A DNA stretch of 64,000 nucleotides from Solirubrobacterales bacterium (GTDB taxonomy: Bacteria; Actinomycetota; Thermoleophilia; Solirubrobacterales; 70-9): positions 1,696 to 65,695 of the forward strand of contig DASSYI010000007.1 in the NCBI GenBank assembly GCA_035703365.1. Direction: 5' to 3'. The notes beneath the pieces were generated by a model. That model saw nothing but the letters and a program-made list of their open reading frames with translations. It did no database searches and was not told where the DNA came from. This document shows, in pieces, positions 46,213 through 62,884 of the stretch. Every line of letters starts with the position of its first letter. The stretch's first letter is position 1. The position numbers and the translations under genes are program-made.

Positions 46213-46285
46213 GCCCCCGTAGCTCAGTGGACAGAGCACCGGACTTCTAATCCGACGGTCGCTGGTTCGAATCCAGCCGGGGGCG
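46213..46285 (+). tRNA. tRNA-Arg (anticodon TCT)
   Basis: Acceptor GCCCCCG/CGGGGGC, D arm GCTC-AGTGGACA-GAGC, anticodon loop CTTCTAA, T arm GCTGG-TTCGAAT-CCAGC, discriminator G. Confidence 0.93.
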
Positions 46286-46287
46286 CT
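46243..46287 (+). repeat. attL core (3' half of tRNA-Arg)
   Basis: ACTTCTAATCCGACGGTCGCTGGTTCGAATCC is identical to 50678-50709. The next 13 nt differ at 2 positions. Confidence 0.85.
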
Positions 46288-46344
46288 AGTAAATCGGCTT
46301 GTAGAGCGGAATTATAAAGAGCCAGTTGATACGAACTGGCGAAA

Positions 46345-46363
46345 TTGGTCCCCAATTGGTCCC
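46345..46363 (+). repeat. Paired TTGGTCCC motifs (candidate integrase arm-type sites, attL side)
   Basis: aaATTGGTCCCCAATTGGTCCCGAAac lies just upstream of int. The same two motifs recur at 50574-50593. Confidence 0.6.
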
Positions 46364-46384
46364 GAAACCGGCTAGAATGGGGGC

Positions 46385-47542
46385 ATGGTTCAGCCTGAGC
46401 AGCGGCCGATTTCGGGGCACGTCTTCAAGCGCAAAGGCAAGCGCGGGACGGTCTGGTACGCGAAGTACCGGCTTCCGGATGGGCGGCAGCAGAAAAAGCG
46501 GCTGGGCCTGAACTGGACCGAGAAGACCGCGCCGCCTGATGGCTACTTCACGAAAACGACGGCGCAGGCGCAGCTTGACGCGATCCTGCGGCAGGCACGG
46601 GCGGGGACGCTGCCGGGGCAGGTGCAGACCGGCAAGACCTTCCGCGAGGCCAGCGCCGAGTGGCTGGCCTACTGCGAGAACGTCCGGGACTGCAAGGCAT
46701 CGACGCTCCGCGATTACGAGGCGCTTGCCGCCGTTCTCAATCGCCAGTTCGGGGACCGTAAGATCGAGACGATCACCGAGCGCGACATCGAGACTTGGAT
46801 CAGCGGCTATCCCGGCTCCAACCGGACGCGGCAGAAGTACCTCGTCTGCCTCGGCTCGATCTTCAAGCGGGCGATGAAGGTCTACGGTCTGCCGCGAAAT
46901 CCGGTTGAGCTGGTGGAGCGGCCACGGGTGCGCAAGGCGGCGACGATCGACGTGCTGCGGCCGGAGGAGGTGATGGCGCTGGTGCGCGCTGCTGACGATG
47001 AACAGGACGCGGCGCTGTTCCATACCGCCGCCTTCGCGGGTCTGCGAATGGGGGAGCTGCTGGCGCTGCGCTGGCGCGACGTTGATTTCACGCGCCGGAC
47101 GATCCACGTCCGCGAGAACTGGACGCAGGGGGAGACGACGACGCCGAAGGGCGGCACCGAGCGGGCGGTGCCGATGGCGGAGGAGGTCGCCGAGCGGCTG
47201 GCGCGGCTCGGCCAGCGCAGCCACCACACCGCCGACGCCGATCTCGTCTTTTGCACCGACCGGGGCCAGCACCTCGGATACAAGTCGTTGAAGGACCGCT
47301 ATCGCGCCGCCCTGCGAGCGGCCGACCTCCGCGAGGACTTCCGGTTCCACAACCTGCGCCACACGTTCGGCAGCACGGTCATTCGCCACGCCGACTCGCG
47401 CGAGGTCATGGAGTGGATGGGCCACGCCGATCTGGCGACGACGCGGCGCTACCTCGCCTTCGTCGACCGTGGCGACGCCGCCAACCGAGTCTCGGAAGCG
47501 TTCCGCCTCGAGGAGCCGGACGCCTCGCCTGTCTCGGCTTGA
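46385..47542 (+). CDS. Tyrosine-type site-specific integrase
   Basis: 385-aa ORF with the catalytic pattern GLRMGELLALRWRDVD ... HNLRHTF ... GHADLATTRRY. Confidence 0.92.
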   Translation: MVQPEQRPISGHVFKRKGKRGTVWYAKYRLPDGRQQKKRLGLNWTEKTAPPDGYFTKTTAQAQLDAILRQARAGTLPGQVQTGKTFREASAEWLAYCENVRDCKASTLRDYEALAAVLNRQFGDRKIETITERDIETWISGYPGSNRTRQKYLVCLGSIFKRAMKVYGLPRNPVELVERPRVRKAATIDVLRPEEVMALVRAADDEQDAALFHTAAFAGLRMGELLALRWRDVDFTRRTIHVRENWTQGETTTPKGGTERAVPMAEEVAERLARLGQRSHHTADADLVFCTDRGQHLGYKSLKDRYRAALRAADLREDFRFHNLRHTFGSTVIRHADSREVMEWMGHADLATTRRYLAFVDRGDAANRVSEAFRLEEPDASPVSA

Positions 47543-47546
47543 CGAT

Positions 47547-47765
47547 CTAGCGTCGTCTGCGCGTCCCATAGGTGTTCTCCGCGATCCACTCGTCAAGGTC
47601 AGAGCGGGTGAACCGCAAGCCACGCTCGCCAATGCGAACGTGGGGCAGGCCCCGCGAGCGGACCAACTCGTAGAGGGTGGAGCGCGGGACACGAAGGAGC
47701 CGCGCGGCTTCGTCGGTCGTGAGCAGCGGTTGGGATTGCTGGAGCCGATTGGCAGCGCTGCTCAT
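47547..47765 (-). CDS. Excisionase-family helix-turn-helix DNA-binding protein
   Basis: 72-aa ORF with LTTDEAARLLRVPRSTLYELVRSRGLPHVRIGERGLRFTRSDLDEWI (MerR-like Xis/HTH_17 pattern). Confidence 0.7.
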   Translation of the reverse strand: MSSAANRLQQSQPLLTTDEAARLLRVPRSTLYELVRSRGLPHVRIGERGLRFTRSDLDEWIAENTYGTRRRR

Positions 47766-48551
47766 TGCTTGCCCTCGCCGATCCAGTTCACCGCTTCTTG
47801 CGGCTCGCCGACCGCGTAGAAGATCGGGGCAAAGGGGCCGCGATCCTTGAGGTCGTCAAGGAAGCAGAAGTAGATCGACACGTCATAGGCACGGTCGAGC
47901 GCGGGATGATTTCCGAGCAGCCAGAGCGCGACATCGAGTCGCCGACGCAGCGCCTCCCGCGATCCGCCGGTCAAGGCACAGATCACGGCCGGGAAGCTGT
48001 AGTAGTAATAGCTCCACAGCAGATTGCCGCTGCCTTTCTCCCGCGCCCGGTAAAGCTGCCCGTAGCGCGCGAGCTCGGCGACCAGCCTTTCAGCCGAGAG
48101 CGTGGCGCGATCCACCTCAACGAAGCGCTGATAGATCGCGATCTGCCGATCCTCGGGGCGGACGTAGGTGAAGACCGCATCGGCGATCAACGAGCGGCGC
48201 GCGGCCGCGGCCGCGGTTGAGGGGATGGGCGACCTCATGCCGCCAGGAAAGCGGCAGGAATTCGTCGCCCCTTTCCCCCGCCGCCTGCAGGAAGCTGATC
48301 CCGACCTCGTTGACGCCGAGGGTGTGGGCGGTCAGCGGCCCCGCCGCTTGCTTCGGGGTGAGAACCTTGGGCCGCTCTCGGGTTTCGCCGGCGGTGATCA
48401 CCGCATCAGCGCCGGCATCGGTCAGGAACCACACACGCCGGGGAGTGCGGCGAGTATCGACGTGGGCGATCAGGCCCGCCCGCTCCAAGTAGGCGAGCGC
48501 CTGTTGGGTGCGGCGCGGGCTGCGATCCGGGTAGTGGATCGCCGCGTTCAT
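47762..48551 (-). pseudogene. Replication-relaxation-family gene split by a frameshift
   Basis: The N-terminal frame (48551 down to about 48215) reads ...VWFLTDAGADAV...HTLGVNEVGISF...LSWRHEVAHPL. The C-terminal frame reads ...SLIADAVFTYV...VEVDRATLS. The frames switch inside a CGCGGCCGCGGCCGCGCGCCGC tract near 48195-48220. Confidence 0.6.
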
Positions 48552-48640
48552 GACGTACTTCTTGACTGAACGAGAATCTCCGATTATTATATGGACCCGT
48601 AACAAATGTGTCTCGGGGAGGCACAGACTGGGGAGAGATC

Positions 48641-49111
48641 ATGAGAATAGGCCAATGTGTTCTTGGAAGTTCAGGCCGTTTATCGGAAAGTCGGAGTCCT
48701 AGGCGACTCCGGTTGCGCTTTGTGGTCTTGTCTTTGTCTCTAGTTACCTGGGCATTGGTATTTGCTGCTCCGGCCATTTCCACCTGTGGAGGAGGGGAAA
48801 GCGGGTCAGAACGAATCGATATCAAACCCGACTCCTACAAGTTCACTACGTGGGGCACTAAAACTTTCACGCTGACGAATACCGGTACGGTGAGCGTCAC
48901 GCTCGTACATCCTCCAAAAACCAGCGCGAACAAACCAGGGTTCAGCTATAGCGAAGGCACTTGTGCAAATGTACAGCTACCCTTCAAACCCGGTCAATCG
49001 TGTAGCTTCACCATTACGGTCAACGCATGGGAACTTGATGGGTCTCTAGAATGGTATACCTCAACTTTGTTTGGGGCGTCAGACAAAGTTCTGGTGAACT
49101 CAACACCCTGA
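48641..49111 (+). CDS. Exported small beta-rich protein (island cargo)
   Basis: ATG at 48641 is preceded by GGGGAGAG. It has a signal/lipobox-like LVFAAPAISTCGG and FTLTNTGTVSVTL-type strands, at about 50% GC. Confidence 0.5.
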   Translation: MRIGQCVLGSSGRLSESRSPRRLRLRFVVLSLSLVTWALVFAAPAISTCGGGESGSERIDIKPDSYKFTTWGTKTFTLTNTGTVSVTLVHPPKTSANKPGFSYSEGTCANVQLPFKPGQSCSFTITVNAWELDGSLEWYTSTLFGASDKVLVNSTP

Positions 49112-49141
49112 CCCTGACCCTGAACAGAACCATCACAGACT

Positions 49142-49765
49142 GTGCCGCGAAGGCTGCAGACCTGGGTGATACGTAGCGGACTCGGTCTCGTATTGATAAT
49201 GGGTGCGCTCTGTGTTCAAGGGTGTGGGGGCCCAGCAGATACGGAAATGTCCCAGCAGCAGGCTTCTTCCGGGGGACTGAGGGTGGAGGCCGCCAGTGAA
49301 CTGATGGTGAGAAGCCCCGCTCTCGAAAACGGTCATGCCTCGGAAAAGCTCCCACTGCGCTATAGATGCAGCGAATCCTTTATTTGGCTTCCCTTGGAAT
49401 GGGGAACGGTCCCAGAGGGGACGAGTGAGGTTGTCGTTACCATCGTCGCGAGAACGCTCCACCGAAGAGGCAACGCAGTCTCTTCAGAACTCTTTAGCGA
49501 GTGGGTGATCGGGGGACTCTCACCTGGAACCCATGTGCTCTATCCAGGTCCGCTTCCTTCAGGGGCGTTTGTGACTGGGCATAACGTCAACATTTCCAAT
49601 TGCCCCCCGCGATCGCAAGAAACCGGGTTTGTATTTACCGTAATCGCCTTGCCGGAGGGCCACCAGCTTCAAAATATTGATTCAATTGACCTATCGACGA
49701 TTGAAGACTTGGAAGCGCGGGCTCTCGCAAAAGGCTACGTACTTGCCACCTATGGGAATGGATAG
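49142..49765 (+). CDS. PEBP/YbhB-like lipoprotein (island cargo)
   Basis: Lipobox LIMGALCVQGCGG. The layout LPLEWGTVPEGTSEVVVTIV ... FVFTVIALPEG resembles PEBP-family spacing, though the typical HW/HRY motifs are not clear. Confidence 0.5.
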   Translation: MPRRLQTWVIRSGLGLVLIMGALCVQGCGGPADTEMSQQQASSGGLRVEAASELMVRSPALENGHASEKLPLRYRCSESFIWLPLEWGTVPEGTSEVVVTIVARTLHRRGNAVSSELFSEWVIGGLSPGTHVLYPGPLPSGAFVTGHNVNISNCPPRSQETGFVFTVIALPEGHQLQNIDSIDLSTIEDLEARALAKGYVLATYGNG

Positions 49766-49782
49766 CACGCCAAAACAGTAGT

Positions 49783-50565
49783 TCAGGGAGAGCGTGGCGT
49801 AGGAGTGGCTGGTTGCAGTCCGATTAGAGACTCCCCGCCAAACTTCCCCCAGGTTGCTCCGGCGAAGGCGTCAATGGCCGCAAGCGTCTTTAGTTGGTGG
49901 TAGGAACGACAGCCGATTAAGTTCGTCCAAGTGGTGGCCGCGACCATGTAGGGCATGTCTGGATTCGGAAAGAGGATGGTTCCTCCGTAGATGGAGTTGT
50001 AAAACCCGATCAGTTCGAGCTGTGCTTGCTCGGGCAGATCGGGGCGGTATTGGATCGCGAGGCGGCCGTGCTCGAGGGAGTGCACGACGCTGGCGGGAGG
50101 AGGGGTCTTGCGATAGGCGCCGTCCGCCTGCTGTTCATCGACGTGGTCGCCGGACGTTGGGGGCTTCGTTTTGTAGCCCGGTTCTGGGGCGCTGGCCGGA
50201 ATGTGTTCGTGGCCCTCATCCGGTAAGCGCAGTCGAAGCTCGCAGCCGGCGGCTCGTACAGCCTTTTGGAGGCTTTGCTCTTTGAGCTCGGGAGGGTCGA
50301 TGCCGGCGCGGGTGTCCAGGGCGATGCCGTTGGTGATCCCGCTATCCAGGTTGATATGGGGGTCGCCGCGAGCGGCGGAGTCCGATCCGGAGGACAGGAC
50401 GACGATGCTAACGATCGCGATGAGAGCCACCAGTACGACGATGCCGTAGGCAGCTAGGAGGCGTCCTCTGCCTTGCGCGGAGGGCTGCCGAGGCCCAGAG
50501 TCGGCTGACTCTTGTTCCGTCTCGTCTCCCACCACCAGGAACTCTATTGACCAATGGCCCTGCAC
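49783..50565 (-). CDS. DUF3105-like membrane-anchored protein (island cargo)
   Basis: 260-aa ORF with one TM (LLAAYGIVVLVALIAIVSIVVL), then KPPTSGDHV and VHSLEHGRLAIQY, which I recall as DUF3105 hallmarks. The start is uncertain. Confidence 0.6.
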   Translation of the reverse strand: MQGHWSIEFLVVGDETEQESADSGPRQPSAQGRGRLLAAYGIVVLVALIAIVSIVVLSSGSDSAARGDPHINLDSGITNGIALDTRAGIDPPELKEQSLQKAVRAAGCELRLRLPDEGHEHIPASAPEPGYKTKPPTSGDHVDEQQADGAYRKTPPPASVVHSLEHGRLAIQYRPDLPEQAQLELIGFYNSIYGGTILFPNPDMPYMVAATTWTNLIGCRSYHQLKTLAAIDAFAGATWGKFGGESLIGLQPATPTPRSP

Positions 50566-53889: not shown

Positions 53890-53916
53890 CCGCGGGTCAG
53901 ATCTCCAGTCGCGGCT
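53888..53916. terminator. Weak hairpin between convergent genes
   Basis: AGCCGCG-15 nt-CGCGGCT spans both stop codons. The stem is short, so support is low. Confidence 0.3.
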
Positions 53917-55792
53917 ATTTGCTGGCGGTGGCGGTAGCGCTGGTGTAGCCGGTCGAGGCGGCGGTGATCGTGTGGGTGAAGCTGCCGCTCGCCGGCGGTT
54001 TGTAGGTGAATTCGGCGGTCGAGAGCGCGGCGCCCGTTTCCGGGATTGCGATCGGCGAACCGGTGATGGTGCTGCCGGAGGTGGCGGTGACGGTTACCGA
54101 TTTGCCGGCCAGGTTGGAGACGAGGTTGCCGACGCTGTCGGTGATCGAGACCTTGGCTTTGACCGTGCCGGCGTTGGTCAGCGCGGTGATCGTGCAGGTG
54201 AAGAAGCAGGTGGAGCTGACCGAGCCCGGAGTGGCCGTCAGGCCCGAGAAGGCGACCCGGTTGGCGGCGCCGGTCGAGACCGTGAGGGCGAGCGCGGCGG
54301 CGGTCGAGATCGTTCCGTCGCTCGCGGTGACGCTGGCCGTCTCCACCTTGTTCAGTTTCGTGAACCCGTTTTTGGAGGAGGCCGGCGTGGCGACGCCGTT
54401 GGTGAAGGTGAGCGCCGCCGCGGTGCCGAAGTTGACCGCGGTGCCGGCGGCGTTGACGACCGTCGGCAGGGCGCCGCTGGGGCTGGCGGTGGCACCGGCG
54501 AAGGTGATGCTCTTCGAGCCCGCGTATCCGGTCGCCGTGTTGCCGTAGACGTCCTGCGCGGTGGTCGTCAGGTTGAACCCGGTCGCCGCCACCGGCGTCG
54601 CGGTCGAGGAGGAGAGGACGAGCTTGGTCGCCGTGCCCGCCGCCACCGTCACGGTCACGGCGGTCGGGGTGGTGAGCGCTTCCTCGGTTGCTTTGACGCT
54701 GGTCGAACCAGACTTGTAGAGCTTCATCCCGCCGCCGTCGGCTTCGCTCGCTTTGGCGACGCCGGCGGTGAAGTCGAGCGTCGTTGCGGCGCCGAAGGCG
54801 ATGTCGGCGCCGGTCGAGTCGCTGACCGTCGGGTTGGTCCCGCTGGGGCTGGCGGAGGCGCCGGAGAAGACGAGGCTGTGGGCGCCGGTGTAGGAGGTGG
54901 CGGTGTTCCCATAGGTGTCCTGCGCGGTCGTCGTCAGCTCGTCGACGGCGCCGGCGGTCGGGGTTGCCGAGGCGGCCGCGAGGACGAATTTGGAAGCGGT
55001 GGTGGCGGCGACCGTGATTGCCGGCGGGTTCGGCGTCGTCACCGCGCCCTCGGTGGCGACGATGTTCGCGGTGCCCGCCTGGTAAAGCCTGACGACTCCG
55101 TTTTTACTGGAAGAGACGGTAGCGACGCCCGTGGTGAAGCTGATCGCGGTCGCAGTGCCGAAGTTCGTGGCGGTCCCGGAGCTATTGGCGACCGTCGGTT
55201 TGGTGCCGCTCGCCGAGGCGTTGGCGCCGGAGAAGACGAGCGAGTGCGAGCCGACGTAGGTCGTGACGGTGTTCCCGGCTTCGTCCTTGGCGGTGATCGT
55301 CAGGTTGCTGGTGCCGCCGGCGGCGATGTTGGTCGCGCTGGCCGCGACGGTGAACGAGGTAACCGCGCCGACGGTGATTTTCGACGTTTTGCCGGCGCTG
55401 GTCACTTTCCAGGTGCGCCAGATCGCAGTCACTTCGTAGACGTGTTCGCCGATCGGAACGGCACCGTCGGTGCAGGTCGTGACCGCCGTCGGCGCCGACT
55501 GTTCGGGGCAGTTGCCGGCCGGTTTGCCGCCGTCGCGGGTCACGTAGTAGGTCACGGTCCCTTCCCCCGGGGGCGTCATCGCGCTCCAGGTGAGGCTGAC
55601 GGCGCCCCCGGCCGCCGGGGTGGCGGCGGTGATCGTCGGCGCGGTCAGTTTCGAGACGGCTGCGGCAGCGTTGCCGGTGCCACTGCCGGAGAAGTAGGCG
55701 ATCGCGGTACCCGCCAGGGCGACGGCAAGCACGCCGAGGAGGAAGCCGGCGACGCCGCTGCGGCGGACGCGTTTCGACCCCGGCCGCTTCAT
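53915..55792 (-). CDS. Exported surface protein with FN3-like domain and tandem Ig-like repeats
   Basis: 625-aa, Thr/Ala/Ser/Gly-rich ORF with an N-terminal anchor/leader ...LAVALAGTAIAYFSGSGTG. It has three roughly 120-aa repeats plus a degenerate fourth. Confidence 0.8.
   Translation of the reverse strand: MKRPGSKRVRRSGVAGFLLGVLAVALAGTAIAYFSGSGTGNAAAAVSKLTAPTITAATPAAGGAVSLTWSAMTPPGEGTVTYYVTRDGGKPAGNCPEQSAPTAVTTCTDGAVPIGEHVYEVTAIWRTWKVTSAGKTSKITVGAVTSFTVAASATNIAAGGTSNLTITAKDEAGNTVTTYVGSHSLVFSGANASASGTKPTVANSSGTATNFGTATAISFTTGVATVSSSKNGVVRLYQAGTANIVATEGAVTTPNPPAITVAATTASKFVLAAASATPTAGAVDELTTTAQDTYGNTATSYTGAHSLVFSGASASPSGTNPTVSDSTGADIAFGAATTLDFTAGVAKASEADGGGMKLYKSGSTSVKATEEALTTPTAVTVTVAAGTATKLVLSSSTATPVAATGFNLTTTAQDVYGNTATGYAGSKSITFAGATASPSGALPTVVNAAGTAVNFGTAAALTFTNGVATPASSKNGFTKLNKVETASVTASDGTISTAAALALTVSTGAANRVAFSGLTATPGSVSSTCFFTCTITALTNAGTVKAKVSITDSVGNLVSNLAGKSVTVTATSGSTITGSPIAIPETGAALSTAEFTYKPPASGSFTHTITAASTGYTSATATASK
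54278..55366 (-). repeat. Three tandem coding repeats of about 360 bp (Ig-like modules)
   Basis: Repeat signature: LT(I/T)TA(K/Q)D..GNT.T.Y.G.(H/K)S(L/I).F.GA.AS.SG..PTV....G....FG.A....FT.GVA, seen three times (about aa 143-262, 263-384 and 385-505). Confidence 0.75.
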
Positions 55793-56619
55793 CCGCGTGC
55801 CTCACCGCTGAAGGCGAGCCGGACGGCGGCGCCCTGGCAGGCGTTCTGGTCACTGGGCAGTTCGCGCAGCGCCAGTGTGGGGGCGGCGGCGGAACCGCTC
55901 GGCAGGCTGGCGCTGCCGCCGGCGGGGACGACGAGCGGCGCCGCGGCGCTGAGGCTCGCCGGCGTGACCGCGAAGTTGGGGTCGGCGGGGCATCCCGGGG
56001 GGTCCGGGGAGACGGCGACGGTGAGCGCGGTGACTTCGATCGGCACCGGGTTCGGGTTGCCGATCCGCACCGGCAGCTGCTGCGCCGGGGCGCCGGGCAT
56101 CAGGTCCTGCAGCGAGCTCGTGTCGGGGTCGATCGTGAACCCCTTCGGCTCCAGCTGCGCCCAGCGGTAGTGGGCAGCGGGGCCGGCGAGGCCTCGCCGG
56201 TTTAGGGCCCTGACCGCGAAGGCGTGGTCGCCGGGCTCCAGGCTGCGGATGATGTGCGGGGAGGAGCAGCCGCCCCACTCGCCGCCTTCGAAACGGCACT
56301 GGAACCGGCGCCAGCGGGTCGGCGCCGGGGGCGGCGCGGTGCCAGGTTTGCCCTCGGCCGGCTTCTGGGGCGGCGGGGCGACGTGGAAGCGGAACTGGAC
56401 ATCGGCGGCGAGCCCGCCGCTGGGCGGGACTTCGATGAAGCGAGGGCGCGCCGGGCCGTCCGCCTGCCCGCGAGAGGGGCGGTTCTTCCCGCCCTTCCTC
56501 GTTGCCGGGTCGGGAAGCGTCGCGGCATAGGCGACGCTGCCGAGGCAGGCGACGGCGGCGACCAGGGCGACGATCGCCCTGGTCGCTCGGTCGGGCCCGA
56601 TGTGTCGACGCCCATGCAT
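55789..56619 (-). CDS. Exported protein sharing a C-terminal Cys-bracketed beta domain with the 156-aa neighbour
   Basis: Signal peptide AIVALVAAVACLGSVAYA, a FQCRFEGGEWGGCSSPH...GDHAFAVRA module, and a C-terminus ...SDQNACQGAAVRLAFSGE. It overlaps the downstream gene by 4 nt. Confidence 0.7.
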   Translation of the reverse strand: MHGRRHIGPDRATRAIVALVAAVACLGSVAYAATLPDPATRKGGKNRPSRGQADGPARPRFIEVPPSGGLAADVQFRFHVAPPPQKPAEGKPGTAPPPAPTRWRRFQCRFEGGEWGGCSSPHIIRSLEPGDHAFAVRALNRRGLAGPAAHYRWAQLEPKGFTIDPDTSSLQDLMPGAPAQQLPVRIGNPNPVPIEVTALTVAVSPDPPGCPADPNFAVTPASLSAAAPLVVPAGGSASLPSGSAAAPTLALRELPSDQNACQGAAVRLAFSGEARG

Positions 56620-56644
56620 CGCTCGACTTGGCCCGACCTGGTCG

Positions 56645-57115
56645 CTAGTTGCTGGAGAGCGCGAGCGTGAGTTCGGCTCCCTGGCAGGCGTTCTGGTTGA
56701 CGCCGGTGTCGTTCATGGTCAGCGTGCCTTTCGGCGTCACCGCCTGCCCGTTGCCGGGGGGAAAGGTGGCGTTGACCGCGACGGCGGGCATCGAGAAATC
56801 GGGGTTGCCGCCGGTGATGACCACGCTGCAGGTCGAGTGGCCGGCGTCGACCGTGATCCCGGCCAGAGAGATGGTGCCGACGCGCTGGGCGCCACCCGAC
56901 GGGTTGTCCACGGTGAAGGAGACCTGCGAGGAGGCGCCGGGGTAGAGGTTGCCGGCGACGGTCCCTTTCAAGGTGACCGCCGAGCTGGTCCCGACTTTGG
57001 CGGTTGCCGTTCCCGAGCCGGTGCTCGTGAAGTAGGCGTACGCGACGGCGGCGAGGGCCAGAGCGCCAAGGCAGCCGATGACGGCGAGCGCCCGTTTACT
57101 GGTGAGGTGGTGCAT
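56645..57115 (-). CDS. Small exported protein (candidate major subunit; TasA/camelysin-like leader)
   Basis: 156-aa ORF with leader ...LALAAVAYAYFTSTGSGTA and C-terminus ...VNQNACQGAELTLALSSN. It is the first gene of the three-gene cluster. Confidence 0.7.
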   Translation of the reverse strand: MHHLTSKRALAVIGCLGALALAAVAYAYFTSTGSGTATAKVGTSSAVTLKGTVAGNLYPGASSQVSFTVDNPSGGAQRVGTISLAGITVDAGHSTCSVVITGGNPDFSMPAVAVNATFPPGNGQAVTPKGTLTMNDTGVNQNACQGAELTLALSSN

Positions 57116-57267: not shown

Positions 57268-57687
57268 ATGCCGAAACAGATTGAGATGCCGGCCGAGCGC
57301 GACAGAGAGGTCTTGAAGATGACGTTGCCGGCCGAGCCGGCCTCGGTGCCGGCCTTGAGGCGCAGGACCTCCAACTTCGCCGCGGCTCAGGGAGCCGGCC
57401 GGGAGCTGGTGGCCGACGTCGCCCTCGCCGTCTCCGAGGCGGTGACCAACGCGGTCAAGTACGCGAAGGTGAGCGGGACCGAATCGGTCCTCGACCTCTG
57501 CGCCGCGCGCCGCGGCGACTGGCTGGAGGTGCGGGTCCGGGACCGCGGCGAGGGGTTCGGCAAAGGCTCGCCCGACGGCCTCGGCCTGGGTCTTTCGATC
57601 ATCGCCCGCCTCGCGACCGACCTGCGGATCGTGCAGGAAGGGGAGGGGACCGAGGTGCGGATGCGATTCCCGCTCCCCGCGGGTTGA
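57268..57687 (+). CDS. Anti-sigma regulatory factor-type Ser/Thr kinase (HATPase_c_2)
   Basis: N-box SEAVTNAVKYA, G1 box DRGEGF and G2 box GLGLSIIARL in a 139-aa ORF. The start may be the internal Met. Confidence 0.7.
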   Translation: MPKQIEMPAERDREVLKMTLPAEPASVPALRRRTSNFAAAQGAGRELVADVALAVSEAVTNAVKYAKVSGTESVLDLCAARRGDWLEVRVRDRGEGFGKGSPDGLGLGLSIIARLATDLRIVQEGEGTEVRMRFPLPAG

Positions 57688-57697
57688 GCCGCCGCGG

Positions 57698-58285
57698 CTA
57701 GCGACCCCTCGCACGGGGCATCTTGAAGAGGCTATGGCTGCTTGAGACATTGGTGCCCTCTTCGCCGGACTCCAAGATCCGCGCAGCGCTGCGGGCCTCG
57801 ACCTCGAGAAGCTCCAGCCGGGCCTTTTCCTGGACCTCGAGCGCTTCCTGCAAGCCCTCCTCGTCGAGGACCAGGGGGGTGCGGGTGAGGTGGAAGTCCT
57901 TGTCGCCGCCGATCAGCTGCGCCTTCGCCGAGACGACGAAGTCGTTGATCATCTTCTGCATGATTTCGCCGAGGATTCCCTCGGCCACCAGCGGGTCCAG
58001 CTCTTCCCACTCCTCGGTGTCGATCAGGTGGCGCTCGGTGGCGCGGTAGAAATGCTCCAGCGCACCCCGCACTGGTCGGGTGCTGACCAGCTCGGCGCAC
58101 TCGAATCCGACCAGCTGTTTGGTGTGGTAGCTGACGTTTGACAGGTCCTCGTCGAGCTCGCGCGCCATTTCGGCTGGGCTCGCGGTGCGGTCCGCGAGGA
58201 TGCGAAGAATCGAAGCCCGCAGCGGATGGCTCATCGCCTTGATCCGGTTTTCGGTGGCTTTACGGCGCTGAGATTTCGTCGACAT
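57698..58285 (-). CDS. ArsR-family winged-helix transcriptional regulator with C-terminal extension
   Basis: HPLRASILRILADRTASPAEMARELDEDLSNVSYHTKQL in a 195-aa ORF. Confidence 0.8.
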   Translation of the reverse strand: MSTKSQRRKATENRIKAMSHPLRASILRILADRTASPAEMARELDEDLSNVSYHTKQLVGFECAELVSTRPVRGALEHFYRATERHLIDTEEWEELDPLVAEGILGEIMQKMINDFVVSAKAQLIGGDKDFHLTRTPLVLDEEGLQEALEVQEKARLELLEVEARSAARILESGEEGTNVSSSHSLFKMPRARGR

Positions 58286-58528
58286 CGCTCTTCCTTATCG
58301 AGGGCTGATTACTGGCGAGGCTTTGATCCTAACTGGATCACTGGACATCGTGTAAAAATCAGCCTGTATTGCTGAAAATTATCTCAATGGTGGAACCAGA
58401 CTCACCAAACTCCCGGTCCACCCACAGAGAGTCGATAGCCGGGGAGGAGGTGAAGACGGATGGATCTCCGCACCGAGCGCGTGGCGCCCCACGATTCGAT
58501 CGCCAAGGGCAGCTAGACACCAGCCGTC

Positions 58529-58557
58529 AAGGCCGGCCTCAGACCGAGGCCGGCCTT
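58529..58557. terminator. GC-rich hairpin downstream of the NlpC/P60 gene
   Basis: AAGGCCGGCCTC-agacc-GAGGCCGGCCTT gives a 12-bp stem, 17 nt past the NlpC/P60 stop. The T-run lies on the + strand, so orientation is ambiguous. Confidence 0.6.
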
Positions 58558-58573
58558 TTAAGTTCGCCCGCCG

Positions 58574-59290
58574 CTACAGCCCGGGCGGGTGCCGGGCGAC
58601 GAACCCGGCGGTCGAGACGGTCGCCAGGTGCCAGCGCGGCCCGGAGCCCTGTTCGGCGCCGACGGTGTCGAAGCGCAGGCCGGCGATTTCGACGAAGGTG
58701 TGGCCGGGGTTGGCGTAGACGGTGATCCACTTTCCGCGCCCTGGCGCTCCCCAGCGCATCAGATCGCCGGAGGTGAGCGGCTGGGGGATCAGGCCGCCGC
58801 CGAAGAGGGCGAAGCTGACGGCGCCGGAGCAGTCGTAGGAGTTGCTGTAGAAGGAGGCGTGGCCGCCGCCCCAGACGTATGGGCGGCCGACGATCGTGTT
58901 GGCGGCGTTGATCGCGCCCTGCACCGGTTCGGGGGCGTCCGGCGGCGCCAGGGCGACGCCGGTGAGGAGGATCGCGGTCGAGTTCGGGTCGCCGCCGCGG
59001 CGGTGGGCGAAGATCTCCGCCGGGCTGAGCCCTGAGGAGTGGGGGACGTGGGTGCCGTTGCTCCCGGCCGAGGCCGGCGGCAGCACCGTCGGGTCGGCAG
59101 CGATTTCCTCCGGCGTCGGCATGTCCGCCTTCTTCCCCGCCGGGCGCGGCGCGGCGGCCGGCGCCGCTTCGATCCGGTGCCGCGCTTCGACCATCGCCAG
59201 GCTGTCGCTCAGCGTGCTCGCGGCCTGGTTGCCGCCGCTGACGCCGACCAGAGCGATCGCTACCTGCAGGACTGCTGCCGTCGGACCCAT
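58574..59290 (-). CDS. Secreted NlpC/P60 (C40) peptidoglycan endopeptidase
   Basis: GRPYVWGGGH...YDCSGAVSFAL (catalytic Cys) and GHTFVEI (His), with an N-terminal signal-like segment. Confidence 0.88.
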   Translation of the reverse strand: MGPTAAVLQVAIALVGVSGGNQAASTLSDSLAMVEARHRIEAAPAAAPRPAGKKADMPTPEEIAADPTVLPPASAGSNGTHVPHSSGLSPAEIFAHRRGGDPNSTAILLTGVALAPPDAPEPVQGAINAANTIVGRPYVWGGGHASFYSNSYDCSGAVSFALFGGGLIPQPLTSGDLMRWGAPGRGKWITVYANPGHTFVEIAGLRFDTVGAEQGSGPRWHLATVSTAGFVARHPPGL

Positions 59291-59313
59291 TCCCGTTGCA
59301 AGACTACGCGCCC

Positions 59314-59466
59314 GTGAAACTCCTGCTGGTCCCGCTGGCGATCATCGCCTTCGTCCTCTTCCTCCTGGTCCTCGGGGCGATCGGCCTGGCGATCTCCTTC
59401 GCCGTCATCTACTTGGTCGGCGGCGCCTGGCGCCTCGTCTCCGGTGGCCGCCGCCGCAATCGCTGA
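59314..59466 (+). CDS. Untracked 50-aa membrane mini-ORF
   Basis: GTG start. My translation is MKLLLVPLAIIAFVLFLLVLGAIGLAISFAVIYLVGGAWRLVSGGRRRNR. It could instead be non-coding leader sequence. Confidence 0.3.
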   Translation: MKLLLVPLAIIAFVLFLLVLGAIGLAISFAVIYLVGGAWRLVSGGRRRNR

Positions 59467-59551
59467 TCTTGTCCCGGCGCCGTTTGCGGCTCCTCGTAAC
59501 GGGAAAAACTTCCTTAAGGGAAGGGAAACCAACGGAGAGAGGTGTGGGGCG

Positions 59552-60772
59552 ATGGCCCAGGAGACCAAACGGAAAAGCAACCGCAGCCGGTCGAAATCGA
59601 ATGCCTCGCAGGGGAAAAGGAAAAAACCGACCCGGCGGGGCAACCAGGGCAGCGGCCGCAACAAAAGCCCGACCGAGAAGAGGGACCGGCAGCGCGAAAG
59701 CTCCGTGAACGGGGAGCGGCAGAGCGAGATCCGCAACCAGGGCTCTGACAAAACCATGCCCGAGCGGATGTACGAGGACTACACGCTCGTCGATCCGGTC
59801 GAAATCAGCGACACCGACGAGCCTGACGTGATCGTCGATGTTCCCGTCGTCAAGGTCGACGAGATCCACTTCGAGCTCGACGACCTTATGGCGCGGGTCT
59901 CGTTGCACGCCGAGGTTCTCGACCTGGTCAAGCTGAGCGTCGGGGTCCACGTCGAGCTCGGCAAGGTCGAACTCAACATCAAAGGCGTCGAAGCGCAGGC
60001 CCTGATGCGGGCGCGGCTCGACCACGTGACGGCGATCATCGATCGCGTCCTGACCACGCTCGACCGCAACCCCGACGTGCTGCAAGAGATCGCGAAGTCG
60101 CTCAAACCGATTTCCGAGGGCGCCGGCAAGGCGGTCGGCGAAGTCGGCGAGGGGGCCAACAAAGCGGTCGGCCAGATCGGCGAAGGCGCCGGCAGCGCGG
60201 TCGAGGACGTCGGCGAGGGCGCCGGGGGCGCCGTCAAAGACGTCGGCAAAGGCGCAGGCGGAGCTGTCGAAGATGTCGGCGGCGGTGCCGGAAAAGCCGT
60301 CGGCGAGGTAGGCGAAGGTGCCAACAAAGCGGTCGGCCAGGTCGGCGAAGGCGCCGGCGATGCCGTCGGCGGTCTCGGCGAAGGCGCCGGCCAGGCGGTC
60401 GGTGGGCTCGGCCAGGGAGCCGGGGCGCTCGGCGGGCTGGCGGGCCTGAGCTCGGGTGGCGGCAACGGCGGTGGAAACGGCGGCAACGGCGAAGGCAGCT
60501 CAGGCGGGTTCGCCAAACAGATCGCCAAGCTCGTCGCCAAAGAAATCGGCGCTGCCGCGACGGACGAGGCCAAAGAGCTCGGCCTCGCCGCCACCCACAA
60601 GGCGATGGAGCTCGGCGAGCGGCGGCGTCAGCGGCGGGCGGCGAAACACAATGCCACCGAGGCTGCGCTGCGCAAGGCCGAGGAGCACGGGGTCGACATC
60701 GACAACGTCGACGGCACCGGCGCCGAAGGCCGCGTCACGGTCCACGACGTCGAGAAGGCGGCGGCCTCGTGA
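59552..60772 (+). CDS. Basic-tail / 11-mer-repeat protein with C-terminal E3-binding (PSBD)-like module
   Basis: ATG at 59552 follows GGAGAGAGG. The layout is a roughly 68-aa Lys/Arg/Ser-rich N-terminus, a beta-rich core, ten EGAGKAVGEVG-type 11-mers, a Gly/Asn linker, and C-terminal ATEAALRKAEEHGVDIDNVDGTGAEGRVTVHDVEKA. Confidence 0.75.
   Translation: MAQETKRKSNRSRSKSNASQGKRKKPTRRGNQGSGRNKSPTEKRDRQRESSVNGERQSEIRNQGSDKTMPERMYEDYTLVDPVEISDTDEPDVIVDVPVVKVDEIHFELDDLMARVSLHAEVLDLVKLSVGVHVELGKVELNIKGVEAQALMRARLDHVTAIIDRVLTTLDRNPDVLQEIAKSLKPISEGAGKAVGEVGEGANKAVGQIGEGAGSAVEDVGEGAGGAVKDVGKGAGGAVEDVGGGAGKAVGEVGEGANKAVGQVGEGAGDAVGGLGEGAGQAVGGLGQGAGALGGLAGLSSGGGNGGGNGGNGEGSSGGFAKQIAKLVAKEIGAAATDEAKELGLAATHKAMELGERRRQRRAAKHNATEAALRKAEEHGVDIDNVDGTGAEGRVTVHDVEKAAAS
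60119..60448 (+). repeat. Ten tandem 33-bp coding repeats
   Basis: GGCGCCGGCAAGGCGGTCGGCGAAGTCGGCGAG and nine diverged copies lie head to tail, encoding (E/K/G)GA(G/N)xAV(G/E/K)x(V/I/L)G. Confidence 0.9.
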
Positions 60773-61074
60773 GCGGCCGCCGTCCCGACCTCGAGTTCTT
60801 CACCTCGGTGAAGGCGAAGGAGGTCGAGTTCGGGAAGGTGCCGGAGAAGCGGAAGGTCACCTACTACGGCGAGCCGGGCCACGAGACCGAGGTGCACGTG
60901 GAGCGGGAGAACATCCCTGAGGAGCCCGAGGAGGGAGTCGTCTACCGCGACGTCAAGGTCGACTGGGCGGTGGAGCAGTGGGTCGTCCACCCGGCCGAAG
61001 CCGAGGGCTACGAGGCCGAGGATGTTGCGCGGGAAGTGGAGGAGCGGCGAAGGCGGGAATCGGAGGCGGACTGA
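60769..61074 (+). CDS. Acidic hypothetical protein, translationally coupled to the repeat protein
   Basis: 101-aa ORF whose GTG overlaps the upstream TGA (GTGA). It is Glu-rich. Confidence 0.5.
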   Translation: MSGRRPDLEFFTSVKAKEVEFGKVPEKRKVTYYGEPGHETEVHVERENIPEEPEEGVVYRDVKVDWAVEQWVVHPAEAEGYEAEDVAREVEERRRRESEAD

Positions 61075-61141
61075 GTTTGGGCTGGCGGCCGCGCGTCCCG
61101 TGCGCGCGGCCGCCGCCATGTCCTCAGGGCCAGCCCTGGCG

Positions 61142-61798
61142 CTAGCGCCTCGCGGTGAGTCCCTGTAGAACGACCTCAACCGGGGAGCGATGCCTTCCGT
61201 TTTTCCCCGACGCGGCGGTCTCCAGACCGCCTGCAATCTCGCTTACCTGCGCGCTCAGGGTCCCAACTCCCTTGGCCGCCTTGGCGACGTCCTTGGAGTC
61301 CACCTTGATCTTCGGCGCCTTGACCTTGATCTTCGGCCTCCGCGTCATCGCCTTGCCGAGCCCGCTCTTTTTGCCGCCTTTGGAGGCGGCCAGAGCGAGA
61401 CCACCAGCGGCTCCGGCTACGGCCGCTCCGCTGGCGACGAGCGGGACCTTCGCTTTGCTCGCGGCTTTGCCGACGCTCTTGCCGGCGCTCTTGGCTTTGC
61501 CGCCGATGTCCTCGACCGCGTGTTTCACGGCATCGACGTTCGAGTGTTTGCTCGACGAGCCGTTCGACCGCGATTTGCCGTTCGACGCGCCGTTGCCCGA
61601 GCTGGGGCGGGCTTTGCTGGCGACCGATTTCGCTTTCGCTTTCGCTTTCGCCGCGACTTTCGGTTTCGATGATCTCGAAGTCGATTTCGTCGATCTCGAT
61701 TTCGCCGCCGCTTTGGTCGCTTTCGGTTTCGACGATCTCGACGTCGATTTCGGTTTCGACGTCGATCGTTTTTTTGCTTTGGTTTTCGTCTGGGCCAT
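61142..61798 (-). CDS. Lys/Ser-rich low-complexity (histone H1-like tail) protein
   Basis: 218-aa ORF. The N-terminal 60 aa are KxK/STSRSSKPK repeats, followed by a central Ala/Gly hydrophobic patch and a C-terminal KIKVKAPKIKV. Confidence 0.6.
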   Translation of the reverse strand: MAQTKTKAKKRSTSKPKSTSRSSKPKATKAAAKSRSTKSTSRSSKPKVAAKAKAKAKSVASKARPSSGNGASNGKSRSNGSSSKHSNVDAVKHAVEDIGGKAKSAGKSVGKAASKAKVPLVASGAAVAGAAGGLALAASKGGKKSGLGKAMTRRPKIKVKAPKIKVDSKDVAKAAKGVGTLSAQVSEIAGGLETAASGKNGRHRSPVEVVLQGLTARR

Positions 61799-61882
61799 CG
61801 TCCTCTCTCCTCGGAGCTTTGTTCCCTTTGTGGATCCCGTGACTGGCTCAATAGATCGGGTACCCGATCTATTGCAGGGAAA

Positions 61883-62884
61883 TCAGCATGGACGGATGGC
61901 TGCAGCGCTTTTCACCGCCTCGAAGGCGCGGCCGGGGATGCGCTTCAGCTGGTTGAGGTTCTCGTCGTCCCAGCGGCGGTCGCTGGTTCCCGAGAAGAAC
62001 CAGTTGGAGCCGTTGTCGGCGACGATCAGGCCGTAGCGCTTCATCGCCACGGCGATCGTTTTTGCGGGGCCGCTGAGGCGGCCGAGGGGGTAGCCGGCCT
62101 TGAGGCGCAGGCGCAGCCCCATCGGCGGCGCACTCGCGGCAGAGGTGTCGCCGGCGCAGTGCGAGGCTGGGTGGACCCAGGCGTTGCGGGTGCTCTCGAC
62201 GGTGACCCGGATCGCGTGGTCGAGGCGGCCGGAGGCGACCTCGTCGTAGCGGAGGAGGCCGGGGAAGATCGGCAGGCCGGCGGCGTCGGCCGAGGTCCAG
62301 CCGTCGGGGCGGCGGGCGGCGGAGCGCAGGTCCCACTCGGTGCCCGAGTCGGCGTTCCAGTGGGGTCGCGGCTTGGCGACGTAGAAAGCGCGGTAGAGCT
62401 CGTAGAGCTTGCAGGCGGCGCGGTCGACGACGAGCACGTGGCGGTCGCCGTCGCTGCGGTTGCCGCCCTCGACCGGGGCGCCGGCCGGGGCCGGGAACGG
62501 CCCGGGGTCGCTCTCGTCGCCGTAGGCGGTGTAGTGGACCGGCAGCTGCCGCTGACCGGCGCCGACGACGGAGTAGGGGAACCCGTAGGCGCGCGGCGAG
62601 CCGAAGTCCGGGTGGAGGACGTCGCCGCCGTGGCCGTTTATGTAGGCGATGTAGGCGTTCGAGCGCGGGTCCCGCGGCGCCTTCGAGACGTCCTGGTTCC
62701 AAGCCGCCTCGGTCGGCAGCGAGGGCGCCCGCGGCGAGAGCGACGCGGGCGGGCTCGGGAAGACCGTGCAGGGGGAGAGGGCGGGGTAAGGGCCGACGGC
62801 GTTGGCCGAGGAAGTGATGAAGACGAGCGCGACGAGAGCTCCCATCAGTCCCACAAGCACAGCGGTGTTCCTTTTCCCCCTCAT
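61883..62884 (-). CDS. Secreted hypothetical protein
   Basis: Trimmed to ATG at 62884 (MRGKRNTAVLVGLMGALVALVFITSSANA signal). I recognised no family for the 333-aa product. Confidence 0.65.
   Translation of the reverse strand: MRGKRNTAVLVGLMGALVALVFITSSANAVGPYPALSPCTVFPSPPASLSPRAPSLPTEAAWNQDVSKAPRDPRSNAYIAYINGHGGDVLHPDFGSPRAYGFPYSVVGAGQRQLPVHYTAYGDESDPGPFPAPAGAPVEGGNRSDGDRHVLVVDRAACKLYELYRAFYVAKPRPHWNADSGTEWDLRSAARRPDGWTSADAAGLPIFPGLLRYDEVASGRLDHAIRVTVESTRNAWVHPASHCAGDTSAASAPPMGLRLRLKAGYPLGRLSGPAKTIAVAMKRYGLIVADNGSNWFFSGTSDRRWDDENLNQLKRIPGRAFEAVKSAAAIRPC

Follow-up and report, generated by a model that had tools for sequence, protein, structure and literature searches.

INTRODUCTION

Peripheral-subunit-binding domains (PSBDs) are normally confined to the E2 chains of 2-oxoacid dehydrogenase complexes, where they stand behind an Ala/Pro linker in company with lipoyl and catalytic domains. 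In the PSBD of Bacillus stearothermophilus, we take Arg135, Arg139, and Arg156 to form the salt bridges to dihydrolipoamide dehydrogenase (E3) and to E1 (1EBD, 1W85, and mutagenesis). Amphipathic repeats of 11 residues occur in group-3 late embryogenesis abundant (LEA) proteins, alpha-synuclein, apolipoproteins, and perilipin-4, which we take to be the systems with which the repeats described below should be compared. For general-stress promoters, the Bacillus subtilis SigB consensus GTTTAA-N12-14-GGG(A/T)A(A/T) has been quoted for nine Streptomyces SigB homologues (PMC8346170), and the Mycobacterium smegmatis SigF consensus is GTTT-N14-19-GGGTA, with many GTTT-N15/16-GGGAA examples (PMC4694148). 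Here we analyze a gene for a 406-aa protein that brings together a PSBD, 11-residue repeats, and a promoter of this type. It lies in a 64-kb stretch of contig DASSYI010000007.1 from a Solirubrobacterales bacterium, to which we refer as the window.

The protein is chimeric in the evolutionary sense: its PSBD is a clade-specific addition to a widespread family that consists of a core domain followed by repeats and that is encoded together with a small acidic partner. Both the core and the partner are without a known relative, whereas the PSBD is a known domain family in an undescribed context.

RESULTS

The gene and its chimeric architecture

The initial annotation had described a protein of four parts, namely, a Lys/Arg/Ser/Asn-rich tail of about 68 residues, a beta-rich core for which it could name no family, ten consecutive 11-mers, and a PSBD-like C terminus, and each of these parts was confirmed (Table 1). 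The segments carry net charges of +14 (N-terminal tail), -8 (residues 69 to 92), -5 (core), -9 (repeats), and -5 (PSBD), and Gly accounts for 17% of the whole protein. In the acidic segment behind the tail, an EREYxDY motif recurs among family members. The longest open reading frame (ORF) opens at a GTG at 59444, 5' of the ATG at 59552. We rejected this upstream start because the conserved promoter and ribosome-binding site fall within the extension it would create; the ATG is backed by the promoter, the ribosome-binding site, and ATGGCNCAG, all conserved across seven Solirubrobacterales loci (the window, L001, L002, and L083 to L086).

A search with the full-length protein recovered only proteins of Solirubrobacterales (Thermoleophilia), annotated as "E3 binding domain-containing protein" or "hypothetical protein." More than 100 of these homologues, assembled independently and 70 to 97% identical, have the same full architecture with 6 to 13 repeats. 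Therefore, the gene is neither a shadow ORF nor an assembly artifact, the latter being a possibility that had been raised for the repeat region in particular.

In the AlphaFold2 model of the full-length monomer (100 aligned sequences; mean predicted local distance difference test score [pLDDT], 59; predicted template modeling score [pTM], 0.26), the N-terminal tail and repeats 3 to 10 fall below a pLDDT of 50. A helix spans residues 319 to 378, with a pLDDT of 71 to 92 by 10-residue block, PSBD included. The DNA encoding this helix contains a second 33-nt tandem repeat of 2.5 copies (60536 to 60617; Tandem Repeats Finder). An identity as an anti-phage defense or phage structural protein was rejected: no PADLOC model matched, and the only PHROGs matches were weak ones of the repeat region alone to tape-measure proteins (E = 5e-4).

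Table 1. Features of the gene, its control region, and its surroundings (window coordinates)
Feature	Position	Strand	Basis
RsbW-like anti-sigma kinase	57268..57687	+	HATPase_c_2 4e-24, RsbW NCBIfam matches; ~2 kb upstream
ArsR/HTH_20 regulator	57698..58285	-	HTH_20 7.6e-10
Small hydrophobic 56-aa ORF, just upstream, outside the promoter	59296..59466	+	47- to 56-aa ORF at same position in L002, L083, L084, L086
SigB/SigF-type promoter, GTTT (-35), 15-nt spacer, GGGAAA (-10)	59482..59506	+	Motif search, 7-locus alignment
Perfect inverted repeat TTCCTTAAGGGAA, candidate operator, just 3' of -10, over expected transcription start	59510..59522	.	7-locus conservation
Ribosome-binding site GGAGAGAGG, 9 nt before ATG	59534..59542	+	GAGAGG invariant in 7-locus alignment
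Coding sequence of the 406-aa protein, stop included	59552..60772	+	Translation identical to that of the initial annotation
Polybasic N-terminal tail, residues 1-68, Lys/Arg/Ser/Asn-rich, net +14	59552..59755	+	Composition; pLDDT <50
Acidic linker with E-x-x-Y-E-D-Y motif, residues 69-92, net -8	59756..59827	+	Composition
Core domain, residues 93-187, predicted long amphipathic beta-hairpin then amphipathic helix	59828..60112	+	phmmer family, AlphaFold2 pLDDT 66-86
Ten 11-residue repeats x-G-A-G-x-A-V-x-D/E-V-G, residues ~188-298, net -9	60113..60442	+	Tandem Repeats Finder, family consensus
Gly/Asn-rich flexible linker, residues 298-318	60443..60505	+	pLDDT <50
Charged helix of three more 11-mers (AKEIGAAATDE / AKELGLAATHK / AMELGERRRQR), residues 319-366	60506..60649	+	Repeat finding, AlphaFold2
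PSBD module, residues 367-406	60650..60769	+	PF02817, PDB sequence matches to E2 PSBDs, Foldseek
Small acidic partner ORF, 101 aa	60769..61074	+	GTGA overlap at 60769-60772, downstream homologues
Convergent Lys/Ser-rich 218-aa protein	61142..61798	-	164- to 218-aa gene in 6/7 clade loci, products align

The core domain defines a large family of Actinomycetota

A 120-residue core query (phmmer) against 1.84 billion representatives retrieved 1092 clusters, represented at 50% identity, at E <=1e-3 and 755 at E <=1e-10. The relatives found in this way are 130 to 580 aa long and share a core of about 100 residues, with the consensus PDVLLDVPxLKVDEIxLEVEDLRARVSLxAEVLDLLKLxVGADVxLGxVxLxIKGVEAQALLKVRLDNVAAIxDRVLTTIDRNPxILE. 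In the usual family architecture, this core is followed by Gly/Ala/Val 11-mers (GAGxAVxxVG), and the ends vary. The taxonomic distribution, which the initial annotation had left to be determined, follows from a scan of one genome per species with an 8-sequence subset of a 45-sequence core alignment: 486 loci were confirmed, which places the family in at least 486 species, almost all of them Actinomycetota, and most of the metagenomic relatives carry no assigned taxonomy. The best 80 of the 486 loci come from Streptomyces, Nonomuraea, Saccharopolyspora, Nocardiopsis, Actinomadura, Prauserella, Streptomonospora, Thermoleophilaceae, and others.

Several members depart from this pattern. One (WP_116304123.1, P0131) is attributed to the gammaproteobacterium Alkalilimnicola ehrlichii, a haloalkaliphile, and could reflect horizontal transfer or contamination. 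In P0201 and P0254, the core is fused to a C-terminal 3-keto-disaccharide hydrolase domain (PF06439), a rare arrangement, and P0247 and P0252 have an N-terminal domain of about 185 aa of an unrecognized kind.

The core matched no Pfam family above noise and is covered by no NCBIfam model; 13 of the 45 core sequences matched the Pfam family RIP_P131-like weakly, at 13 to 16 bits against a cut-off of 27. None of the best 120 profile matches is a named protein or carries a Pfam domain, and a literature search by peptide strings found no paper on the family. Against the sequences in the PDB, the core profile produced chance matches only (E >=0.18), and Foldseek searches of the PDB with the full-length and core-only models returned no significant core relative. 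Aerolysin-type pore hairpins were rejected as relatives (E >0.6, probability <=0.14), their likeness being a coincidence of shape. GvpA was also considered, as the order of secondary structure elements is superficially similar (helix-hairpin-helix, the hairpin being amphipathic and "IDRVL" recurring in a helix) and the strings "ARVSL" and "IDRVL" occur. It was dismissed at an hhalign probability of 1.4% over 10 columns, and no gvp gene was present in any neighborhood examined.

In the full-length model, the core (pLDDT 66 to 83) is predicted to form strands at residues 93 to 97, 104 to 122, 126 to 144, and 152 to 156, followed by helices over residues 159 to 209. A core-only monomer model built on 116 sequences (pLDDT 70 to 86; pTM 0.33) shows a single very long hairpin (about 93 to 122 and 126 to 154) plus helices. 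The hairpin strands thus measure 19 residues each in the former model versus about 30 in the latter, and the topology is to be regarded as provisional. The hydrophobic moments of the core strands peak at 156 to 165 degrees, which corresponds to one hydrophobic and one charged face. We infer that the core oligomerizes, because an amphipathic two-stranded ribbon cannot stand alone and would need a partner surface.

A small acidic partner is encoded directly downstream

The stop codon of the gene overlaps the start of an ORF through a GTGA, as had been noted initially, and the 101-aa product is indeed acidic (28 Asp plus Glu versus 16 Lys plus Arg; pI 4.7). Of the 83 loci with room for it, 72 have a homologue of this ORF immediately after the family gene and in the same orientation, often with a 4-nt overlap. 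Because the partner is kept in this way, we consider the two-gene module to be the unit of selection. The partner motif reads PDIEF.A.V.A.E.RF.E.PET.V.F.G.P..ES.SGS.RTNLPD.V....TYRDV.VDYRL, and a profile search found 513 proteins; among the 120 matches listed, none is named and none has a Pfam domain. Matches of the partner profile to PDB sequences were, likewise, at chance level (E >=0.18). As both proteins begin with "PD[IV]," the partner was considered as a distant paralogue of the core N terminus, a relationship that was rejected at an hhalign probability of 0.1%.

A promoter motif of the general-stress type and a candidate operator precede the gene

The promoter motif, GTTT-N15-GGGAAA, ends 45 nt before the ATG and is the sole match to GTTT-N13-17-GGGWAW in the window. 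It fits both the B. subtilis SigB and the M. smegmatis SigF consensus. In an alignment of the 120 nt upstream of the gene in the seven Solirubrobacterales loci, CGTTTG and GGGAA are invariant and the spacer varies. Among 58 further loci, 8 (in Nocardiopsis, Actinomadura, and Streptomonospora) likewise carry the motif ahead of the family gene, against 0.01 expected per 700 nt.

Resemblance to the SigB/SigF regulons of Actinomycetota and Firmicutes extends from the promoter to an RsbW-like kinase gene nearby, while the palindrome behind the promoter is extra and suggests a second layer of control. At up to one mismatch, TTCCTTAAGGGAA has this sole site in the window, matching both strands as a palindrome (0.11 expected), and its TTCC...GGAA is conserved in the seven loci. 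RNA structure at the palindrome was not significant (z = -1.26), and no Rfam family was found in 58000 to 62200. Perhaps TTCCTTAAGGGAA serves as an operator for the ArsR/HTH_20 regulator, which is syntenic in all seven clade loci; no second copy lies upstream of the regulator gene itself. The RsbW-like gene stands beside the regulator in three of the seven, the window included. As far as sequence can tell, these features and the neighboring genes described below together point to a general-stress, envelope-related setting.

The 11-residue repeats have the periodicity of an 11/3 helix

All ten of the 11-mers listed initially are present, the tenth being degenerate. At the DNA level, the unit of 33 nt recurs 9.4 times over 60115 to 60423 with 74% matches, zero indels, and super-periods of 66 and 132 nt (Tandem Repeats Finder). 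A period of 11 or 22 was found in 91 of 111 family representatives. That the 11-residue periodicity is real is evident from the hydrophobic moment, which peaks at exactly 98 degrees, the harmonic of an amphipathic 11/3 helix, at about four times the beta harmonic; a peak at 95 to 100 degrees was seen in 88 of 105 representatives. The structure predictions called for by the initial annotation thus return an amphipathic 11/3 signal but a modeled repeat region largely below a pLDDT of 50. By our own reading of the consensus, an 11/3 wheel would place Ala3, Ala6, Val7, and Val10 in a narrow stripe between three fixed glycines, with the charges opposite.

With the 11-mers of group-3 LEA proteins, alpha-synuclein, apolipoproteins, and perilipin-4, the repeats share the period, the 11/3 moment peak, a hydrophobic face of small residues, predicted disorder when free, and a variable repeat number. 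In contrast to those systems, each 11-mer has Gly fixed at three positions, the polar face carries acidic residues in place of Lys, and a folded beta core is part of the same chain. Nor is homology detectable, with zero Pfam matches to LEA_4, Synuclein, or Perilipin at E <=1. All sub-threshold matches of the repeats are to amphipathic-helix families (Apolipoprotein, spartin Senescence, Chlorosome CsmC, and tape-measure proteins) and may be compositional: the spartin Senescence domain reached 21.4 bits (cut-off, 24.6), and the best Apolipoprotein score, in the relative P0161, was 25.3 bits (cut-off, 90).

The C terminus is a PSBD with an altered interface

The Pfam profile that had been singled out beforehand for the C-terminal segment, E3_binding (PF02817), matches residues 371 to 401 at E = 8.7e-9 and 35.9 bits (gathering threshold, 23.7), and at E <=1 it is the only one to do so, with no match to SAP, HeH, or Rho_N. 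A PF02817 match is also precomputed in all 120 homologues among the matches listed. AlphaFold2 models the module as a compact two-helix fold at a pLDDT of about 90, which Foldseek aligns with 2eq8_C (probability 0.99; target-normalized TM score 0.64; root mean square deviation 2.0 A; 34 columns; 47% identity) and, similarly, with 1w85_I and 1w88_I. The sequence N-A-T-x-A-A-[LM]-R-K-A-[EQ]-E-x-G...G-T-G-x-x-G-R-V is nearly invariant in the 120 clade members, and because of this the segment is probably functional.

Like the PSBDs of E2 chains, the module keeps the G-T-G-x-x-G-R-V-x-x-x-D-V motif, and it superposes on solved PSBDs at 42 to 48% identity. However, a long helix rather than an Ala/Pro linker precedes it, and the N-terminal "S-P" has become "A-T." As initially stated, the protein has neither a lipoyl nor a catalytic domain: Biotin_lipoyl and 2-oxoacid_dh gave zero matches at E <=1, and the NCBIfam E2 models touch only residues ~316 to 404, with 13 to 24 bits against cut-offs of 378 to 722. 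Judged by its domain content, it is thus not an E2 acyltransferase or E3-binding protein chain, since the lipoyl domain and the catalytic core are missing.

A gapless HMMER alignment to 2pdd and 1w4i places Leu373 at Arg135, Glu377 at Arg139, and Arg394 at Arg156 of the B. stearothermophilus domain. The first position is Leu or Met in 120 of 120 clade members and the second Glu or Gln in 114 of 120, while the third remains Arg. Arg374 and Lys375 are conserved, so that basic residues are shifted by one position. Some divergent family members retain the canonical pattern, such as P0177 with AARRRARESG. To the extent that the alignment predicts contacts, canonical binding of E3 or E1 by this PSBD is doubtful.

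The tail position varies and the PSBD is lineage specific

A PSBD terminates only ~12 of 150 family representatives. Among 58 family genes in the retrieved loci, it is found only in Solirubrobacterales locus L002, and in none of the 57 (0/57) from the genome scan. Those 57 end instead in a strongly basic Lys/Arg/Ser tail, with a charge of +5 to +12 over the last 40 residues and often with a final ...E-x-P-P, and members with such a C-terminal tail usually have acidic N termini. In loci L023 to L081 (Streptomyces and relatives), many members finish with "...R-E-R-D/E-E-P-P" or "...R-P-P" after the basic tail. A single polybasic tail is present in every lineage, at the C terminus in Streptomyces, Nocardiopsis, and others and at the N terminus in the clade of the window; therefore, the tail is constant in the family and its position is not. 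From these comparisons, the Solirubrobacterales clade alone appears to have moved the basic tail to the N terminus and to have added the C-terminal helix and PSBD, the latter being, on this distribution, a lineage-specific acquisition.

Genomic neighborhood

The gene order in the clade is ArsR/HTH_20 (-), an NlpC/P60-like gene of 240 aa (-), a hydrophobic ORF of 47 to 56 aa (+), the gene (+), its partner (+), the Lys/Ser-rich gene (-), and a gene of ~345 aa (-). The convergent 218-aa protein has N-terminal SKPK-type, histone-H1-like repeats, a Gly/Ala-rich hydrophobic segment, and a conserved C terminus ending in HRSPVEVVLQGLTARR. It matches no Pfam family and may be functionally linked to the gene pair; the gene called at its position in L001 encodes only 70 aa. 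A lipase/LCAT-like gene lies nearby in two of the seven clade loci.

In other lineages, the commonest neighbor after the partner is an SRPBCC (Polyketide_cyc) gene, found in 19 of 58 loci in varying orientation. The SRPBCC protein (L051, L035, L016, and 16 further loci) is about 380 aa long; its N-terminal extension is amphipathic and its C-terminal tail very acidic. Asp23 and PP2C/SpoIIE genes occur near the family gene in a few loci.

Elsewhere in the window, a tRNA-Arg(TCT) gene (46213 to 46286) is followed directly by a tyrosine integrase (46385 to 47542; Phage_integrase, 1.7e-32) and an excisionase-family gene (47547 to 47765; TIGR01764, 2.9e-17), and the GC content dips to 0.58 at 48 to 50 kb; the region from 46213 to 50000 resembles a small integrated mobile element. 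At 53915 to 57115, the minus strand encodes, one after another, exported proteins of 625, 276, and 156 aa, which have no Pfam or NCBIfam matches. The first and last of these share an N-terminal "A-Y-(A-Y)-F-S/T-x-x-G-S-G-T" behind a segment resembling a signal anchor; the 625-aa protein, rich in Thr, Ala, and Ser, contains internal repeats of ~95 aa. The three genes may form a surface fiber or adhesin operon. Two genes for cytochrome/quinol oxidase subunit I (COX1), at 12492 to 14399 (+) and 21046 to 22731 (-), lie within 10 kb of each other.

DISCUSSION

As our leading, still tentative explanation, we propose that the protein is a general-stress-induced, self-associating scaffold or coat that binds a surface and polyanions and that, in this clade, uses the PSBD as a client adaptor. 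The gene would open a two-gene module, conserved in Actinomycetota, that a general-stress sigma factor of the SigB/SigF type turns on. The amphipathic beta-hairpin core, probably with the co-translated acidic partner, would drive oligomerization. The 11/3 repeat of ~110 residues, disordered when free, would become a long helix upon dehydration or along an interface, to which its narrow Ala/Val face would turn. Because of the neighboring genes, the surface of the cytoplasmic membrane is the likeliest such interface. Through the polybasic tail, the assembly may be anchored to a polyanion, for example, DNA, RNA, polyphosphate, or anionic lipid. In Solirubrobacterales, the rigid helix and the PSBD at its end would provide a docking module for a client, which might be E3, an E1-like partner, or, since the PSBD interface is altered, a new partner.

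Several observations weigh against this scaffold proposal. AlphaFold2 confidence is modest (pTM 0.26 to 0.33), the two models differ on the length of the hairpin, and the repeats are largely modeled below a pLDDT of 50. With 36% Gly and a net acidic charge, the repeats are poorly suited to helix formation and to binding of anionic membranes; surface binding by them is a prediction from sequence. Two of the three canonical arginines that contact E3 and E1 are replaced and one is kept, and there is no E1 or E3 gene within the window or the syntenic loci. The promoter motif is found in only a minority of the loci outside Solirubrobacterales. Finally, apart from the partner, the neighborhood varies between lineages, and the family has no constant association with any membrane, lipid, or nucleoid gene. 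The alternatives discussed below differ from the scaffold proposal, and from each other, mainly in the surface and the client they invoke.

The alternative that survives best, which we nonetheless consider rather unlikely, is that the protein is a LEA-like hydrophilin protecting against desiccation or osmotic stress. The 11-mers would fold only when water is lost, giving non-specific protection to membranes and proteins; the core would do no more than multimerize the protein, and the PSBD and the basic tail would be accessory. The amphipathic periodicity, the Gly content of the protein, its predicted disorder, and the SigB/F-type promoter would all fit such a role. Family members seem to be enriched in actinomycetes that are halophilic, marine, or from dry soil (Streptomonospora, Prauserella, Nocardiopsis, Allosalinactinospora, and marine Streptomyces). 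A member in the haloalkaliphile Alkalilimnicola would be in line with the same apparent preference, as would the abundance of Solirubrobacter in desert soils reported in one study (PMC10722151). However, neither LEA_4 nor any other LEA family of Pfam is matched at E <=1, and the protein has a strongly conserved folded core, a conserved PSBD, and an obligate partner gene, none of them typical of simple hydrophilins.

The lead of the initial annotation, an adaptor for 2-oxoacid dehydrogenases, fares less well, and we judge it unlikely. Here, the PSBD would bind E3 or E1 so that the protein clusters, localizes, or sequesters them, for instance by throttling the pyruvate and 2-oxoglutarate dehydrogenase complexes under stress. 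The PSBD is genuine in sequence and fold, it appears to be under strong purifying selection in the 120 homologues, and it is well placed for docking at the tip of a predicted rigid helix of 60 residues. Also, the arginine pattern of members such as P0177 would be compatible with canonical binding. On the other hand, the absence of a PSBD from most of the family means that docking of this kind is not the ancestral function of the module. In the clade that does have the PSBD, the substitutions at the Arg135 and Arg139 equivalents include a reversal of charge at the interface, and the protein has no lipoyl or catalytic domain nor a linked E1 or E3 gene.

Perilipin-4 and apolipoprotein B coat neutral-lipid bodies, and Rhodococcus MLDS is reported to link lipid bodies to DNA. 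By analogy with these proteins, the hairpin and a weakly hydrophobic giant helix might coat or tether lipid droplets, with the basic tail making the link to DNA. The narrow Ala/Val face of a long repeat helix would suit a droplet surface, and the sub-threshold matches to Apolipoprotein, spartin Senescence, and Chlorosome CsmC, the lipid-binding SRPBCC neighbors in 19 loci, and the lipase/LCAT-like gene could be read in the same direction. Yet those matches stay below threshold throughout and may reflect only composition, and no genes for triacylglycerol or wax-ester synthesis are linked. We also know of no documented lipid bodies in Solirubrobacterales, and we regard a lipid-droplet coat as improbable.

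Comparably improbable is a nucleoid-associated protein, in which the polybasic tail and possibly the helix-loop-helix PSBD would bind DNA and the core would oligomerize to compact or protect the stationary-phase chromosome. The polybasic Ser/Lys/Arg tail in every lineage, the syntenic convergent neighbor with its histone-H1-like SKPK repeats, and the stress-type promoter speak for this role. However, most of the protein (core, repeats, and PSBD) is acidic, and no DNA-binding domain was detected, the C terminus lacking any match to SAP, HeH, or Rho_N in Pfam at E <=1.

A more elaborate possibility, which we rate as a long shot, is a "hibernation factor": a block-polyampholyte scaffold (+14 tail, acidic core and repeats, basic helix), based on a fold without a known relative, that under SigB/F-type stress forms a condensate or lattice together with the partner, either at the membrane or at the nucleoid, and whose re-tuned PSBD, in Solirubrobacterales, sequesters E3/E1-type dimers of the pyruvate and 2-oxoglutarate dehydrogenase complexes.

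Taken as a whole, we rate the protein as a variant of amphipathic-repeat stress or coat proteins and not as categorically new, since its mechanism is only inferred and uncharacterized stress proteins are common. The family itself is large (~1100 clusters at 50% identity, from at least 486 species), and we found for it no name, Pfam or NCBIfam model, structure, or literature. The domain boundary, the partner gene, and the candidate promoter and operator described here provide a basis for naming and studying it. The Solirubrobacterales version is one of the few PSBDs on an unrelated scaffold and offers a testable handle on the possible use of PSBDs for docking in general and on a possible contact of stress scaffolds with central metabolism. 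Should its PSBD indeed capture E3 or E1 on a stress scaffold, for which we see only a slim chance, this would tie central metabolism to the stress response in a new way. More generally, the family appears to be part of the general-stress response in soil and halotolerant actinobacteria, the response that is the basis of their survival of drought and salt.

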